DNA from: Octopus vulgaris
Taxonomy: Eukaryota
Assembly (NCBI GenBank): GCA_951406725.2
Contig: OX597830.1
Location: 75,082,001-75,146,000, forward strand
Direction of reading: 5' to 3'
Length of the DNA stretch: 64,000 bases
Part shown: in pieces, positions 3,961-58,065 of the stretch
How the letters are laid out: each line of letters begins with the position of its first letter
Position numbering within the stretch: the first letter of the stretch is position 1
The notes under the pieces: model-generated
Databases searched by the model: none
What the model was told of the DNA's origin: nothing
The model's input: only the letters and a program-made list of their open reading frames with translations
Made by a program: the position numbers and the translations under genes

Positions 3961-3970
3961 CATAGAAATA

Positions 3971-4425
3971 CAGCGTAGGCGAGAAAGATATGCCATAATA
4001 TATATCTGGAAGATCCTAGAAGGACTTGTCCCAAACTTTGGCATCGAGAATTACACAAATACTAGAACTGGGCGTCACTGCACAGTGCCAAGGACTCCAA
4101 ATTTGCCATCAAGATGTAGGACAAGATACTGCGATAGCCTGGGCTTCCGAGGCCCACAGCTCTTCAATATCCTCCCGAAGAACCTGAGAGACCTGCATGG
4201 GGTGGATGCAGATGTCTTTAAAATAAAACTGGATCTCTTCTTGTCAGGTGTCCCAGATGAACCAACTTCACGGCAGGAGGTGCAGATGAGGGCAGCTGCA
4301 TCGAACTCTCTCATGCACCAAATGGCATTCGTGAAGTAAAATCATGCAGCAGCACCAAATGGCGGTGCCCCAGCATGGCCACAGCTTGTGAGCTGAAACT
4401 AAATAAAAATAAAAAATAAAAAAAA
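3971..4425 (+). mobile_element. 3' end of a CR1/L2-group LINE (ORF2 C-terminus, 3' UTR, A-rich tail)
   Basis: Open frame QRRRERYAIIYIWKILEGLVPN...GPQLFNILPKNLRDL...FKIKLDLFLSGVPDEP...* (stop 4339), typical of CR1/L2-group post-RT C-termini; tail ggcggtgccccagcatggccacagc...ctgaaac(taaaaa)n. Confidence 0.82.
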
Positions 4426-24673: not shown

Positions 24674-24690
24674 GAAAAGTGTAGGAGTTA

Positions 24691-24807
24691 CTTATACCAC
24701 CGAGGTTTCCCAAGCGGTTACCCATCTAAGTACTAACTAGGCTCCACATTGCTGAACCTCGATAATCAGACGAGAACCGGTGTATTCAACATGATATGGA
24801 CGTAAGC
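24691..24807 (-). pseudogene. 5S rRNA pseudogene (near full length)
   Basis: Minus strand GCTTACGTCCATATCATGTTGAATACACCGGTTCTCGTCTGATTATCGAGGTTCAGCAA...GTTAGTACTTAGATGGGTAACCGCTTGGGAAAC...TATAAG aligns to metazoan 5S with many transitions; isolated, not in an array. Confidence 0.9.
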
Positions 24808-49960: not shown

Positions 49961-51024
49961 CAGGTCTCTCCTATGTGTACAATTTTGTAAACCCTATTTG
50001 TAAATGAAACACATGTAATAGTGAATGAATAATAAAAAAAAATTACCCAATCTTTTGTTTTGAAATGTAATTACATCGCAAAAAAAATGTACAAGAAAAT
50101 TTATCCCCAAGGTGCTGTGCAGTGCAATTGAACCTCAAACCTCGTAGTTGCAAAGCAAATTTTCTAAACATACAAAAATGTAGGATAATGATGAAAAGTA
50201 CTTCAGTTGTGCCGAGTATGTTTTTCTATACGCAGGGAGCGGTTAACTACATCACCGAATGTATTATTTTCCAAAAGGAACCAGAATGATGTAAGGAGAT
50301 TGGACTACTATTTCTAGCAGATACAAAAATCACTTAGAGTCTCTCCCATTTCTTGGTGATGATCGTAGTGGTAATGGCACTAGTAATGTTGTTGACTTAT
50401 CTGCTGTTATGTATCAATTATAGTCTAAGTAAATTTTAAGTAACTTACGGTATATGGTTAAGAAATCTCTCTCGAGAACACTTCTCCAAACACTGGATTA
50501 TAATATATTACCGGGGGAGATATCAGCCTATGTTATTACTTAGTAGCAGTGGGAAACAAACAAATCTACCTCGCCCAAAAATAAAATCAGTCTCATATGA
50601 CGAGAAAACGCTTATAAATTTGTGCGTGTCTGCCTGTCTGTGTGTGTGCGTGAGTGTGCGTGTGTCTCTGTGTGTGTTTTTGTGCCACACAGTAATTATA
50701 TGTTAAGTACAGTTCCTTTTAAGATATATGATTAAGTATATCAACAGAACATTTGCTATTAGGGAACTCAATGATAAGAGCAGAGGAAAATTTGATGCAA
50801 ACTTCATCATAGCAGTGACTTCGTATTTTACCTAATGGTTTACCAAAGCAATATATATGCAATCATACGCATACGCACACGCAAATTCATTCGGAAACAC
50901 ACATATATGCATACATAAATGAATTGACAATAGATATTAATTCTGATGCATTTGTATACACACACAGACATATGCATGTACATATATATATGTATATAAG
51001 TAAATATATATATATATATATATT

Positions 51025-51151
51025 ATTTTATTCTTTTATTCTTTTATTCCTTTCAGTCATTTTGACTGCGGGCATGCTGGAGCACCGCCTTTAGTCGAGC
51101 AAATCGACCCCATGACCTATTGCTTGTAAGCCTAGTACTTATTCTATCGGG

Positions 51152-51203
<52 letters not shown>

Positions 51204-51373
51204 ACACACACACACACACATATATATATATACAACGGGTTTATTTCAGTTTCCGTCTACCAAATCCATTCACAAGGCTTTGGCCGGCCCGAGGCTATCG
51301 TAGAAGACATTTCCCCAAGGTGTCACGTAGTGGGACTGAACCTGGAACCATGTGGTTGGTTAGCAAGCTACTT
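51025..51373 (-). mobile_element. SINE family B, 3' part, split by the Tx1 LINE
   Basis: Continues exactly from the head fragment at 56757-56795. Confidence 0.92.
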
Positions 51374-51601
51374 TATTTCATATAATTTGCCATTTAGGCA
51401 TTTACAAAGAGGGGACAAACAAGGACAGACAAATATAAAGGGTGAAGTAGCTTAACACAGTTACAATTTTCGAATGAAATTACGGATAAGATTATAAGCA
51501 ATGAATTTTACGAAGGCAATGTTTAAAAATATTAATGATCATGTCGAAGGAGGGACATCCAGCCATCCGGGTAGAACCTTTACTTTCTGATCCGGTCACA
51601 C

Positions 51602-54600
51602 TTACCTGGTGCCAAACATACCCATCTTGTATGCCACAGGCTTCCATCTTTTCACAAACATATCTCGTGACAGACACCTCTTCTCCAGCCTGATTTTGCT
51701 ACTGAGGTGATAACTAAAAAAGTTAATCAACCCCTGGCCGGAGACAAAGGTGCCTGTCACTATACCTTTCGTACGCGTCTTCCATACTGTTTCTTTCAGT
51801 ATGGCTACTACACAGAAAAAACAAGCCTTTCTTTCCCTGTTAAGGAAAGGGGGCGGCACAATCTCGATGATAGACTCAGCTGATAGCTGTACTCTTCCCA
51901 TCACTGACAACAGTTGTTCAACAAAAGCTATCAGTCCCGATAACTCCGGACACTCCACGAATGCGTGCAAGACGGTCTCCCTATCCTGCTCACATCGCGG
52001 GCATGTCGGCGAGACGGCACTACCGTGCCTTGACAGCTTGTCGCGAACAGGTAAAGCCGCACGGAAACACTGCCAGGCCAGGGATTTCTGGTAATTATCC
52101 AGATACCCCGGCCCGAACGTCCTCCGGAACAGGTTGACCAACTGATTTTCATCGTAGCCCAGGGTCTCCCCAAGGCGTCTTCGGACTTAATCTCCACTAA
52201 CCCGCTATAGAAATCCGTGGTGGAACTCCTGTTGCCGGCGTTGCCCACCCGAGATAGTAGCTGGAGCGCCTGACGGCACTCCAAATGCCATTCACTCAGT
52301 TTAGGTCTCCGCTTGATCCATGCACCGTTAGGGATGTTAACTGGGGAAGGTAGAACCGGACGTGCGGTGACCACACCTGCTCTCCATCCAGGTAAAGCCA
52401 GAGGTGCCTCAACCTTAACGCGAGTTTTCGCATCCTCAGCCAAGGCATCCCTAGCCCACCCTTTAGCGGTTTCTGGCAGCAGACAGAGCGCTTTACAAGT
52501 GGCTTTCCTCCTTTCCACAAAAATCGGAAAAGGATTCTCTCCAACTTGTTCAGCCACAAATCGGGGCAAGGCACCACGGTCAGACGGTAGGTGATTACTG
52601 ATGCTATAAACATCTGCACCACCTCCGCCTTCCCTAGCAGGGATAACGCCCGCCCAGACCAGGTCTGGGTTAGAGCGGTCACCTTGTTGGCCACCTCACT
52701 CCAATTTTTCTCAATCTGGAGGTCTGGCCCGAACCAGACTCCGAGCAGCTTAACAGGACCTTCCGTCCAACGCCCTACGACGTTATTGGACGGCATCGGC
52801 TTGCCCCTCCAGGTGCCGAGTTGCAAACCGACCGACTTGTCCTTGTTAACCTTTGCTCCTGCCACCGCCTCGTAGCATTTGATGGCCTCTTCCACCACTG
52901 GAAGCTGTCACCCGCATACGCCGTAGCTCCTCTTCCACACCATAGATCATGCGGCGCGCCCCCTAGTGCCTCCAACTTCCGCAGCAAAGGCTCAAGAGCC
53001 AATACGTATAGGAGCGAGGACAGGGGACACCCTTGACGAACTGAACGCTCGATCCTGAACGGCTTCGAAAAGGAACCGTTCACCTTGACTACAGACTCGA
53101 TGTCGCTATACAAAGCAGCGATCCAACCTCGAAAGGTCGGGCCTAGGCCAGCCTCTCCGAGGACCGCCGCCAGGTACCGATGGTCGACCCTATCAAATGC
53201 TTTGGACTGGTCTAAATGTACCAGTGCTCCCCCTACGCCAGAAAGCTTCCCCACCCTCTCTAAGGAGTAGCGTATAAGGTGGAGATTGTCGTGGATCGTT
53301 CTGCCGGGGATAGCGCAAGTTTGTCCACGACCCGCGCCAACCTTTTTGCTAGCACCTTGGCCAGAATCTTTAACTCTGTGTTTAACAGAGTTATGGGCGT
53401 GAAGTTCCCTATCTCGTCCCCCTTGTTCGGGTCCTTCCTGATCAACGTCACCGCCCCCCGGCTCGCAGACTTGGGAATTCTCCCATTCTGCTGCCAGTTG
53501 GCGTAGACGCTAGCCAGCAGGTGCCCGAACAAGTCTGGCATACTTCTATAAAATTCATAGGGCAGACCATCGAGACCCGGCGACTTCTCCGCGGGGCACT
53601 TGCCCAACACCTCGATTACTTCCTCGGCTGTGATTGGCCCTACACAGCACTCAGCCTCTCGTGTCGAGAGGCGCGGGCCACCAGACAGGAAGTCCCTAAG
53701 GGCCTCACCATGATCCAGCGTCCCGCACCTCCCGAACAACTCGGCGAAGTGCTTGTGAAGTGCCTCACACATCTCGTCCCGCTTCTTGATCGTGCATCCG
53801 TTTTCATCAACAAGAGACCCAATTGTGGCATCGTTTCCACGCTGTGTTTCTATCGTACGGGCCCATCCGGCAACATTAATTCCCTCACGGCCCAATGCTC
53901 GTACTTTAGCCCGGACTCTACATCCCTCATGTTTGGTTTTGAGGTGACGGTCTAATGCCGTTCTCGCCGCTAAAATGTGAGATGCAGAGCCCAACCTCAA
54001 CGCCTCCTCTAAGTTCTTAACTAGTTGCCCTTCTATTCTAGCCCTATCTAGTCTTAGTTGTTTACTAAATCTAATGGACTCGAATCGAATGGCTCTTTTG
54101 GGGTGAACCACCACCGGTTATTAACCACGGCTCCGGTTAACGCCCTCTGCACTAACACCTTAATCCGGCTACGGTATGCCTCGCGTGTCAAAATAGACTT
54201 GTTCAGCTTCCAGTAGCCGGTTCCTATCTTAAGTGTGCTATCTATGTCCAGTCTACACGTGACCATTCTATGGTCAGTATAGGGCACCTGGACGAGCTGT
54301 GGACAACTAAAACTAGACTTATCTCTAGTTCTTATCACTATCCTGTCTAGATAAGACTTGAACCTTCCGTCGCCACTCATCCAGGTCCACTCTGGGACGT
54401 TCGGATGGTCAAGTCTGTAACGATCTGCCAGCTGAAACCGCTTAAGCAGATCCACGAGACGTGAGTTCACTTTCCTATAGATCGAGCCAACGCTATCGAT
54501 GTGTACGTCAACGATAGCATTAAAGTCCCCTAATATCACTAAAGTCTTCGACGTCACGAGAAAGCCCTCTAGGCGCCGATAAAAATCAGTTTGGAAACCT

Positions 54601-54947
54601 CTAGCACAAGGTGCATAGAGTCCGATCAACCTGAAGGCCTTACTGCTGTATGTCACATCAAGGACGACCAGTCCACCTTCTGGGTCTACATAGATTGTAC
54701 TTGTCTGTAGAGCCAAGTCTTTACGGATCAGTACCACTACGCCCCCTCGCCCTCCGGTCTGGCCAGGAGACATGATTTTCTCGTAGCCATTCAGGAGAGG
54801 CGAGAAGGTTTGTAGGCTGTCCAGCTTGGTCTCTGTAGCAACCATCACATGTATATCATGTGATCTGAGGTCGTCGAGGAAACAAGCCTGCTTCCACTTC
54901 GAACTCAGACCACGCACATTTAAACAACCAAGGTTAAGCGAAGCCAT
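51602..54947 (-). pseudogene. Tx1-like ORF2 (APE endonuclease, reverse transcriptase, C-terminal CCHC), about five frameshifts
   Basis: MASLNLGCLNVRGL, GDFNA, YLDRIV, TDHRMV, GYWKLN (APE); KSPGLDGLPYEFY, PITLLNTELKILAK, LDQSKAFDRVDH, VRQGCPLS (RT); AYA truncated before DD; CPRCEQDRETVLHAFVEC. Confidence 0.93.
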
Positions 54948-54964
54948 TACAAAAAGTAAAAGTT

Positions 54965-56391
54965 CTACTTACATTTCGTTGGAGAGGTGGGGGCCGATCT
55001 CACCACACGTTTGTGGGCCCCTTCTTTCTCCTCTTTCTTCAGATAGTCCGGCAAGTTCGCGATATGCCGGATGGCGTTTGGGTGTCTGTCTTTTAATTGT
55101 TTGAACGTTGTTTCCGCAATCCACGCGTGTCTATTTCGATCTTTGTATTTGTTGTACAGTCTTGCTGACTGATGCTGAACCACAATATCGTTTATGTATT
55201 TGTCTTGTGTGTCGAATTCAATTAATATGAGTTCATTTTCTTTTTTGTCTTCTTTTTCTGGGCCAGTTGAGCGGGATTTTTTTTTCCGTGTCTGTGGTGT
55301 GTTTTTGTTTTTATTATTTTTTGTAGGGGATGTGGACGGGGATGCTGCACGAATTCTTTTACGAACTGGTGTAAATCCCCCCTCTGATACCTCCATGGTA
55401 TCGTCTGGGGTAGCAATAGTTTGTTCGGTAGGCGCCGCAGATTTTAGGGGGGTGGGAGGTTTTAATAGTGTAGGGGTTTGTGAGTGCGAGGGCTGGGGTT
55501 TTTCTTCAGTCTGTTTTGGGGTTGGCACCGTAACAGCAGGAGTGGGATTTTTTGTTTTTGTAGGGGTATGTGTGTTTGCAAGGGTAGGGACTTTTTTATT
55601 ATCTGAGGGGCCTGGTGTCTGCGGTTTCTTTTGCTTGTCTGGACAGTCTACACGAATGTGGCCCTTTTTGCCGCAGGCGTAACAGGTGGGTTTTCGGCCT
55701 TCGACCTGTACCCTGAGGGCTACGTTCTCGCCCACGAGCACCCTCTCAGGAAGGAGCTGCAGGTCCTCCGCTGTTCCTTGAATTAATATATTAATGTTAC
55801 GCCCGAGCCAAAATAGAGGGGCAGAGCATGTTACTTGTAGTATTTTTATTTTGTCCGCCCTTTTATATAACAGGGCGGCCACTACCTCTACCGGATCTAC
55901 TTCCGGCGGGGCTTCTACAATCCTGACCCGGGACGTCCTGCGTCTCCTATAGCTTGGGAAAAGTACCACCTCCTTGGTTTTTAGGGGGTTCACAGAATGC
56001 CCGCGGGCCATTTCTTCCCCGAGAAGCGGACATCCACAGTGCCATATGCCCGTCCCCTGGCGAAGTACACGATGTCCTTCCAAATCGGGGACAGGCATTT
56101 CTCGATGGTGCTTTTTTCAAAGTGTTTGAACCTTCTGCTTTGTGGACAGAAAGTTTTAAACACTACGGTCCGCTTCTCGGTCTCCACGATACTGGCGGAG
56201 GGTGATATTTTAACATCACCACCCTCCTCTTGTATTCTTTTAAATAGCTCGACGAGCTGGTTGACATCGATGTCAATGTTCTCGGTAGCCAATGCGGCTA
56301 CCGCAGAAAATTTTTTAACATTGCTCTCCTCAAGAGCACTACTTTCGTGAATAATTTCAACAGACATTATTCTGTTGAAATTAGACAACAC
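54965..56391 (-). pseudogene. Tx1-like ORF1 (gag-like, zinc knuckle), one frameshift near 55990
   Basis: ORFs 55990-56391 and 54965-56098 overlap in different frames; CYACGKKGHIRVDC knuckle, then a Pro/Thr/Lys-rich linker; ends 17 nt before the ORF2 ATG. Confidence 0.85.
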
Positions 56392-56756
56392 AAAAATTAC
56401 GAGTATTGGTTTCCCACAAAACTGGGAAACCTATAGAAAGTTTTTCTTCCAAAGTAGTTCAAAAAAGCAGTTCAAAAATTCCAATTCCCACCCCCATTCG
56501 GGGGAGGGGCACGAAAATAGTCTGGCAGGACTATATATAGTCACGTAAATAAAAAGCCACAGTGGCTAACAGTTCAACGGTAAGAAATTATTCAATTATT
56601 TCCCGGTAAATCCGGAGAACAAGACAGTTCAGCAACGTTTAAAGGCAAATTTTCAGTAGTAGGAATTCAACAATTAACAACACAGCAAAACTCTTACCGG
56701 GAAGAAAACGCGTCCAAACCGTAGTACGGTAAGCAAAGTCACTCTTCTGTCAGTGA

Positions 56757-56795
56757 GGTTAGCAAGCTACTTACCACACAGCCACTCCTGCGCCT
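56757..56795 (-). mobile_element. SINE family B head (5' of the Tx1 insertion)
   Basis: Minus strand aggcgcaggagtggctgtgtggtaagtagcttgctaacc, matching the head at 4950. Confidence 0.92.
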
Positions 56796-56804
56796 AAAAT
56801 ATTG

Positions 56805-56894
56805 TGCCCCAGGTGAGGATCGAACTCACACCCTTCAGAGTCGTCTGACTTTATTCTTGATTATGAGACTGACGCGCTGCCTAATGCGCTACCG
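56805..56894 (-). pseudogene. Elongator tRNA-Met(CAT) pseudogene with 21-nt insert at canonical intron position 37/38, lacking first ~4 nt
   Basis: Minus strand cggTAGCGCATTAGGCAGCGCGTCAGT-CT-CAT-A[atcaagaataaagtcagacga]CTCTGAAGGGTGTGAGTTCGATCCTCACCTGGGGCA followed by caatatttt; 5' acceptor bases replaced by TATA. Confidence 0.85.
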
Positions 56895-58065
56895 TATATA
56901 TTTGTATGTACGTATTAATAAACACAGTATATATTTTTATGAGCTGCTAATAATTTCATGCGATAGAAACATCCCAGACAGCATTTTGAACACGCCTGGT
57001 GCCATCACTCAATACTCAGGCTATGCCCACATGGCAAAAGAAAATAAAACTGGATGATAGGATGAGAAAAAATCGCGAAGAGGCGAAAACGGATTAGATG
57101 TGAAACGTGGAAGGTTGAAAATCGGTAAACGAAAACGAAAAGAGAAAAGAGAAAGAGGAGGAAATAGAGTTATGCCCCTTTTCATCGTAAGGTCATAAGG
57201 CTGAATGGATAGTGCCCTACAATCTGTGTTACAGCTGCTCAATCTAGAGTGGGTGGTATTTTCCACCAGAAACTTATCCATATATTTACAACCGCTGAAA
57301 ATTTCAGATCTAGAATTCAGTAGAGAGGTGGAGGGCTTAGATCTGAGAAGTATTTGTGCGTTTCAGCAACGAATAGCGTCAATTTGTTTTATCTGTTGAT
57401 ATATATTGAAGACGTTTCAACTATTTTCTACTTTATTGAATGTGGTGTGTCGTTAGACTTCAAACCCTCATACGTGGCTTTACTTTTCACCCTGTGTCAG
57501 AAAGAAGATATGTAGTTAGCATAACGATTTTTGAGATCGCATTCATTTAGCCTAATGTAGCTCTTCTTTTCGGTTACGTTATCAGCTTGCATTGCTGTTA
57601 AAAAATGTAGTCTGGGATGTTTTCATCGCACGAAACCATAAACAACACTTAGAAATATAAAATGACTTGGAAGAACAACTTGACATTTTTTATCTGCAAC
57701 AAAAAAAAATAATATCAAATAGTCCTTGTGGAATTCTTCTGTAGTGTAGACTGTAATTGCAACGACATTAAGGAGCTTTTTGCAAGGTTGTTATGCATGG
57801 AAATGCAAATCATCATGTAAAAAATTCCTCTCTCTTCTTACTCTGTTGCTGAGCAATTAATTGGCAATGATGGGAAGAAAAGTAAAAGGGAAAAAAGTTC
57901 GATGAATGCTTTTTAAAATATGAATTATTTTTTATTCTGTAAGGATTGTCAAACTTTGTAAAATATTTAATTTAGCATAATTTATTTGTTTTGCCTTATA
58001 CCATACTGATGAATTCAAATAAGGATGAAATAGCGCTTTACATAGCTACCAATGACTAGAAATAT

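Follow-up and report, generated by a model that had tools for sequence, protein, structure and literature searches.

Chimeric retrocopies in which a U-tailed RNA lies 5' of a LINE or SINE have been described as U6-L1 in mammals, as U6-L2 and U6-Mon-1 in platypus, and as U6-AnolisSINE2, U6-L2, and U6-RTE in anole (PMC4476161). Human pre-tRNA retropseudogenes made by L1 (Schmitz et al. 2004, cited in PMC4476161) derive from reverse-transcribed precursor tRNA, implying nuclear capture; fusion to SINE heads or LINE tails is not described for them in the available text of PMC4476161. Human tRNA/LINE-1 chimeras, for which twin priming has been proposed, comprise 21 loci in which the tRNA was co-inserted with the retroelement, typically at half length and mostly in antisense (PMC13174262). 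In Magnaporthe, WEIRD-MGL and WEIRD-Mg-SINE carry cellular RNA 5' of a LINE or SINE, with preferred switch sites and double jumps; this partner is a long non-coding RNA, and the word tRNA is absent from the available text of PMC2104539. SINEs with snRNA heads are related (PMC4494074), and template switching has been proposed as the origin of SINE heads (PMC4476161, PMC5786205). Among the SINE classes of a recent repeat annotation in octopus are 5S, U, and U-L1 (PMC13282606); its available main text never uses the string "chimer," and such families may be present in the supplements.

We analyzed a tRNA-Met/SINE-B chimera of Octopus vulgaris that belongs to this known class of LINE-generated chimeric retrocopies (U6-L1 type), showing a direct same-orientation fusion, an RNA-derived 5' part, and an independent origin per copy. 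As in the U6-LINE/SINE chimeras described in PMC4476161, octopus chimeras consist of a U-tailed RNA polymerase III (Pol III) RNA joined 5' and in sense to a LINE or SINE, arise in one insertion with common flanks, involve several LINE clades, and include short partner pieces with short target site duplications (TSDs) where the LINE recognizes tails. Unlike those chimeras, as far as the available text of that paper describes them, those of octopus often begin with a 5S precursor or with a pre-tRNA (~17 types) that still has its leader, intron, and trailer, their joins frequently coincide with an intact SINE start or with a set position ahead of a 3' hairpin, and the host is an invertebrate. The octopus chimeras also share co-insertion with the human tRNA/LINE-1 loci, precursor copying with the L1-made retropseudogenes, and a cellular RNA placed 5' with the WEIRD elements, but their tRNAs are near-full-length sense precursors. 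Such partners at this scale, together with tRNA-plus-tail "instant SINEs," appear to be new: our literature search, outside which most subscription papers lie, returned no report of sense pre-tRNA-SINE chimeras, which does not prove absence.

The window (i.e., the whole 64,000-nucleotide stretch that was analyzed, G000:C17:75082001-75146000 in a 2.8-Gb genome) includes the following features, where SINE-A and SINE-B are working labels:

3965-4420: 5'-truncated LINE, ending in a two-hairpin tail common with SINE-B
24689..24807, minus strand: 5S rRNA copy with trailer, joined to a SINE-A head (sister case)
51017..51024, no strand: AT-rich outer flank within an (AT)n run, weak TSD candidate tatatatt
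51025..51357, minus strand: remainder of SINE-B, with the two-hairpin tail and short A-rich repeats at its end
51358..51373, minus strand: 16-bp target duplication of the inserted LINE, second copy
51374..56756, minus strand: 5.4-kb non-LTR retrotransposon with a zf-CCHC ORF1 and with endonuclease, reverse transcriptase (RT), and zf-RVT in broken frames (Pfam)
56757..56772, minus strand: 16-bp target duplication of the inserted LINE, first copy
56757..56795, minus strand: SINE-B 5' head, abutting the T-run directly, 100% identical to other heads
56796..56804, minus strand: 3' trailer caatatttt with four terminal T (Pol III terminator remnant), CCA absent
56805..56894, minus strand: retrocopy of elongator pre-tRNA-Met(CAT), positions 5-73, intron kept (Rfam hit, alignment to intact genes)
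56841..56861, minus strand: 21-nt tRNA intron at the canonical 37/38 position, after A37 (alignment with intact genes)
56895..56902, no strand: AT-rich outer flank, weak TSD candidate tatatatt

The tRNA part matches the Rfam tRNA model at 56810-56894 with 32.4 bits (cut-off, 29) and differs at 7 of 90 positions from the closest gene (G000:C17:78.92-78.94 Mb). A first-pass annotation of this DNA, made from the letters alone, had described a 21-nt insert at 37/38, the loss of about four 5' nucleotides, a trailer caatatttt without CCA, and a direct join to the first base of a co-oriented SINE-B, and all of these features were found. Intact Met genes at G000:C17:78.92-78.94 Mb carry a near-identical 21-nt intron (ARAGORN i(37,21)), and the insert is, judged from this alignment, a true tRNA intron. 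Intact genes start with GCCT, 4 nt that are missing from the copy (56894-56805, minus strand); the trailer of the copy runs from 56804 to 56796 on the minus strand, and the SINE-B head starts at 56795. The same annotation expected a parent gene with the trailer caatatttt; none of the 33 genes listed has it exactly, and the nearest trailers begin catttt... or caatttt.... The upstream flank, whose homology to a real gene flank would speak for duplication at the DNA level, is identical to that of the best parent gene at 11 of 30 positions, both being AT-rich, and is not homologous. Beyond the T-run there is no gene sequence (i.e., the 5' part ends at the U-tail). The intron, the trailer up to the T-run, the lack of CCA, and the gene-unrelated flanks thus indicate that the 5' part copies RNA. 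A functional tRNA gene at 56805-56894 was ruled out, given the 4 nt absent at the 5' end and the 0 genes called there by ARAGORN at default settings, as expected for a decayed copy; folding of the copy gave a z of 0.46, and the locus itself is an inert pseudogene.

Introns (12-22 nt among those parsed) occur in every elongator tRNA-Met gene seen in this genome, and the genes lie in four clusters:

G000:C17:78.85-78.94 Mb: Met gene cluster
C11:39.90-39.92 Mb: Met gene cluster
C8:23.318 Mb: Met gene cluster
C14:15.42 Mb: Met gene cluster

To our knowledge, tRNA-Met introns are unusual in animals, and a literature search for a paper on Met introns in animals found none. Lys-TTT-like copies with inserts occur as well (L049, L063, and L100).

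On the SINE side, SINE-B is interrupted after 39 nt by the 5,383-bp LINE, which is flanked by the 16-bp duplication and probably entered the head after the chimera had formed. This LINE, which we take from its motifs to be Tx1-like, is target specific: each of the 20 5' ends that were fetched from its 88 matches comes after one and the same 16-nt site in the SINE-B head, and three of them stand in tandem after another LINE-like end. When 4 of 24 public sequencing runs were compared with 50500-57900, repeats dominated, and the joints across the LINE derived from other SINE-B copies. The sole word common to the outer flanks of the chimera is an 8-nt AT-repeat match; the pair of tatatatt proposed earlier as a weak TSD is present at 56895-56902 and 51017-51024, but both copies lie in AT repeats and are not diagnostic. 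Folding of the tail hairpins gave z of -1.76 and -0.96, not significant taken alone. A self-cleaving ribozyme in the tail, considered by eye, was dropped; Rfam returned none in the window or in 100 loci.

The locus is not alone. A second Pol III RNA-SINE chimera with another SINE family, also claimed in the first-pass annotation, is present as the 5S/SINE-A unit, the whole of which is bounded by an imperfect ~13-bp duplication (2 mismatches, by eye). The genome-wide census of pseudogenes abutting SINEs that was proposed there yielded sense joins for 14/16 dispersed Met, 22/25 dispersed U6, and 11/12 dispersed 5S copies. For U6, the best 30 of 48 matches were taken, 5 clustered and 25 dispersed; of the three dispersed copies outside the sense-fused set, one has an antisense SINE tail nearby and two have no SINE. 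The 47 matches to 5S include 12 dispersed places, and the 11 sense-fused copies keep their parental trailers. The twelfth (L189; G000:C25:5354954-5355202) holds two trailered copies head-to-tail, 130 nt apart and outside the 5S cluster; this tandem, possibly a double jump, precedes an open RT-like frame that is presumably Penelope-like.

The Met census (40 scored of 76 candidates, plus 37 exact hits) resolved into the four gene clusters and 16 dispersed places, all of which were fetched. By eye, 14 of these show a sense join, the partner being a SINE head in 9 cases (one variant head counted) and a LINE/SINE 3' tail in 5; the split becomes 8 and 6 if an RTE-like case and head variants are sorted otherwise. 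One chimera (L034) is joined without a T-run. The two exceptions are L023, which is likely a solo gene and is also the best-matching parent of chimera L022, and L032 (G000:C3:65637278), an unspliced 3' half of tRNA-Met between short inverted repeats and without a SINE, possibly a repair-type capture. Chimeras and parents match over intron plus trailer at 30/30 (L035), 29/29 (L007), 28/30 (L036), and 27/29 (L022) positions, and L007 and L019 have a 4-nt leader in common with their parents, with divergence beyond it. Because the chimeras match different parent genes, they represent independent events. A search of the genome for spliced junctions (up to 1 mismatch) gave one place, a spliced, trailered copy joined to a SINE-B head, and turned up no intronless Met gene as a possible DNA donor. 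Among the 32 clustered Met copies listed, none has a SINE after its T-run (at least 3 further cluster hits were not fetched); one clustered half-copy is broken by an antisense SINE-B, an ordinary insertion.

Other tRNAs were found with junction patterns. The SINE-B pattern (exact T-loop, 8-30 nt, TTTT, and SINE-B head) gave 35 hits genome-wide vs 2 with a permuted T-loop, in a genome with 47,633 exact SINE-B heads; the SINE-A and 3'-tail patterns gave 28 and 33 hits, the permuted control having been run for the SINE-B pattern only. Of these 96 hits, 88 were fetched and 8 were not. Rfam placed a tRNA at the join in 49/88 (SINE-B, 16/30; SINE-A, 17/28; 3' tail, 16/30), compared with 0/12 unselected SINE-B loci; the other 39 fall below the Rfam cut-off, some being truncated and some chance hits. 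Since ARAGORN made spurious calls at relaxed thresholds, Rfam was used for counting, and the ARAGORN labels, some of them unreliable, serve only to name types roughly (~17 amino-acid types). Measured up to the last T-run, the median trailer length is 13 nt, and CCA occurs near position 73 in 2/49 copies, both times within a longer trailer. The same trailer can stand on different partners (L109/L110 and L129/L145). Of the confirmed joins, 33/49 lie at intact SINE heads, and in tail-only chimeras the join precedes the first hairpin by 2-5 nt; by eye, ~4/103 tails in unselected flanks look tail-only, a rough comparison of different patterns. Capture is rare per SINE (on the order of 1 in 2,000 exact heads, a lower bound) and usual per dispersed copy. 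The recurrent appending of U-tailed Pol III precursors to SINE 5' ends, suggested at the outset from two instances, thus holds genome-wide but is too narrow in its partners, which also include ~55-nt LINE/SINE 3' tails and truncated bodies. Some trailers record termination: the RNA either read through a first T4 and ended at a later T-run or stopped after only 1-2 U (L035, L029, and L192).

Whether the two parts entered together can be read from the flanks of 42/49 confirmed chimeras (i.e., those with the 3' end found). The longest word common to the outer flanks averages 7.98 nt vs 5.29 (sd 0.29) in shuffled pairings, a value reached in 0/10000 of them, and AT repeats inflate a few of the values. 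Between the trailer side and the downstream flank, where a SINE inserted later after the T-run of an existing tRNA gene copy or retrocopy should have left its duplication, the average is 4.43 vs 4.37 shuffled (3556/10000). Exact 10-17-bp duplications surround the whole chimera in 9/16 SINE-A cases and stop 0-7 nt short of tRNA position 1, consistent with short leaders; 12-14-bp duplications accompany 2/3 U6 and 1/2 5S fusions to SINE-A. Clear duplications are few in SINE-B and tail chimeras, as they are, by eye, in unselected SINE-B copies, so that the strong TSD signal of the class comes from the SINE-A cases. Chimeras L048 and L194 cleanly split an older SINE (paralogous empty-site evidence), and in a flank-continuity BLAST of 50/88 loci, L048 was the one clear case, with L066 and L121 as weak ones. 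Across the class, the TSD flanks chimeras as wholes rather than the SINE alone.

A history of two DNA-level events would draw on a T/A-rich target preference, and SINE-B does prefer AT-rich sites, many joins read as a T-run followed by A, and the tRNA-Met/SINE-B locus has no diagnostic outer TSD. Chimera L133 even lies inside a tRNA gene cluster, between two Ala genes; however, it is a Glu copy, and a duplication of 13 bp or more encloses its tRNA and SINE together. Together with the lack of a trailer-side duplication, the 0/32 clustered Met genes so hit, the near-complete sense bias, and the near absence of dispersed retrocopies without a partner, this makes two events very unlikely, and at the tRNA-Met/SINE-B locus a single insertion is, in our view, highly probable.

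For that single insertion, the best reading, and a probable one from the sequence, is an end-to-end jump of the RT from the SINE onto a U-tailed pre-tRNA. SINE-B RNA would have been reverse transcribed to its 5' end in one LINE-driven insertion; the enzyme would then have jumped onto the 3' U-tail of an unspliced pre-tRNA-Met, presumably nascent and captured in the nucleus, and copied all but the first 4 nt of it; and both parts would have been integrated at an AT-repeat site, with a different LINE inserting later into the SINE head. Template jumps by a non-LTR RT have been observed in vitro (PMC8857657). Capture of a pre-tRNA during SINE retrotransposition, as first suggested for this locus, is supported by the genome-wide census, the RNA marks, and the independent parents, and the joining step is what we infer.

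The pre-tRNA and SINE RNA might instead have been ligated first (RtcB type) and the fused RNA retrotransposed in the same single insertion. Sense orientation and joins at T-runs fit this order of events equally well, unspliced pre-tRNAs encounter the tRNA ligase complex (textbook knowledge), and the joins of tail-only chimeras gather 2-5 nt ahead of the 3' hairpin, as they might at a cut RNA end; partners that are tail-only or truncated would, if made by cleavage, offer 5'-OH ends fit for ligation. The pre-tRNA is expected to bear a 3'-OH and SINE primary transcripts a 5'-triphosphate, whereas for ligation the U-tail of the pre-tRNA would have to end in a cyclic or 3'-phosphate and full-length SINE RNA would have to start with a 5'-OH. 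Ligation before reverse transcription has been shown experimentally for human U6-L1, but RtcB ligates far less efficiently when the donor has a 3'-OH or the acceptor a 5'-triphosphate (PMC6789731). The human L1 census also holds few tRNA partners (21), half-length and mostly antisense (PMC13174262). The 33/49 joins at intact SINE starts, which would carry the triphosphate, and the poor RtcB ligation of the expected ends favor the end-to-end jump, and prior ligation is rather unlikely, with the caveat that sequence alone cannot separate the two. Also in favor of joins at intact SINE starts, and hence of the jump, an AT before the SINE-B head is kept in 9/16 SINE-B chimeras and precedes 22/30 unselected heads, although it could be target DNA instead of the SINE start.

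Amplification of a composite master, i.e., a tRNA gene reading through into a downstream SINE and spreading as a new dimeric SINE family, is hardly credible. SINEs with added small-RNA heads exist (PMC4494074), and some octopus chimeras are alike in tRNA type and tail type (L118/L121). Against this, joins, introns, trailers, and partners vary by copy and trace to different parents, in no parent gene is the terminator followed by a SINE, and a second copy of the tRNA-Met/SINE-B junction was not found in the genome.

The enzymes for the jump would come from more than one LINE. The two-hairpin tail of SINE-B is common with the LINE at 3965-4420 of the window, a presumably CR1-like element (from its motifs) with 1,649 candidate copies, a LINE whose copies encode endonuclease and RT. 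The SINE-A 3' end has ~30 bp in common with the 3' end of the 5.4-kb LINE, whose 16-bp duplications match the SINE-A TSD lengths. A third tail type, assumed to be RTE-like, ends four chimeras (L021, L164, L179, and L187). At least three LINE machineries therefore seem, from these shared ends, to capture U-tailed RNAs.

Accounts of how a tRNA acquires the 3' tail of a LINE and turns into a SINE usually rely on old consensus sequences, and the octopus genome offers dozens of single, datable products of such joining with precursor ends preserved. Under the template-switch model of SINE birth, a tRNA head on a LINE 3' tail is the predicted product, and 16 octopus examples are confirmed by Rfam; they differ from the model's SINEs in being unamplified single events, with a tRNA terminator between head and tail that would block full-length transcription unless weakened. 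A broader proposal, offered tentatively, is that several LINE machineries routinely jump onto whatever U-tailed Pol III transcripts are nascent, starting from the 5' end of their cargo or from a 3' hairpin core of ~55 nt that is protected by protein, hence the chimeric state of nearly every dispersed tRNA, U6, or 5S copy. The tRNA-plus-tail products might then be ready-made SINEs, one weakened terminator from activity; some SINE families may have been so born, and the genome might be a fossil library of SINE births. The interest thus lies in the genome-wide class, the single locus being inert. The set makes jump vs ligation testable, as pre-tRNA and intact SINE ends are likely poor RtcB substrates, unlike mature U6, and the internal terminator does the same for one-off vs founding SINE. 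The chimeras also record pre-tRNA leaders, terminator read-through, and processing order. A warning for annotation is that dispersed tRNA, U6, and 5S hits in this genome, even high-scoring ones, are in many cases retrocopies and not genes.

Some chimeras are located within or close to clusters of tRNA genes: L133, already mentioned, and L007, which is 13.5 kb from the C8 Met cluster and has an intron of the C17 type despite this location. Two on C17 (L034 and the one in this window) are within 4 Mb of the Met cluster. Such positions may hint at capture near Pol III sites. In addition, an 18S rRNA 5' fragment (L139:2875-3058) is located ~1.3 kb from a tRNA-SINE-A chimera.
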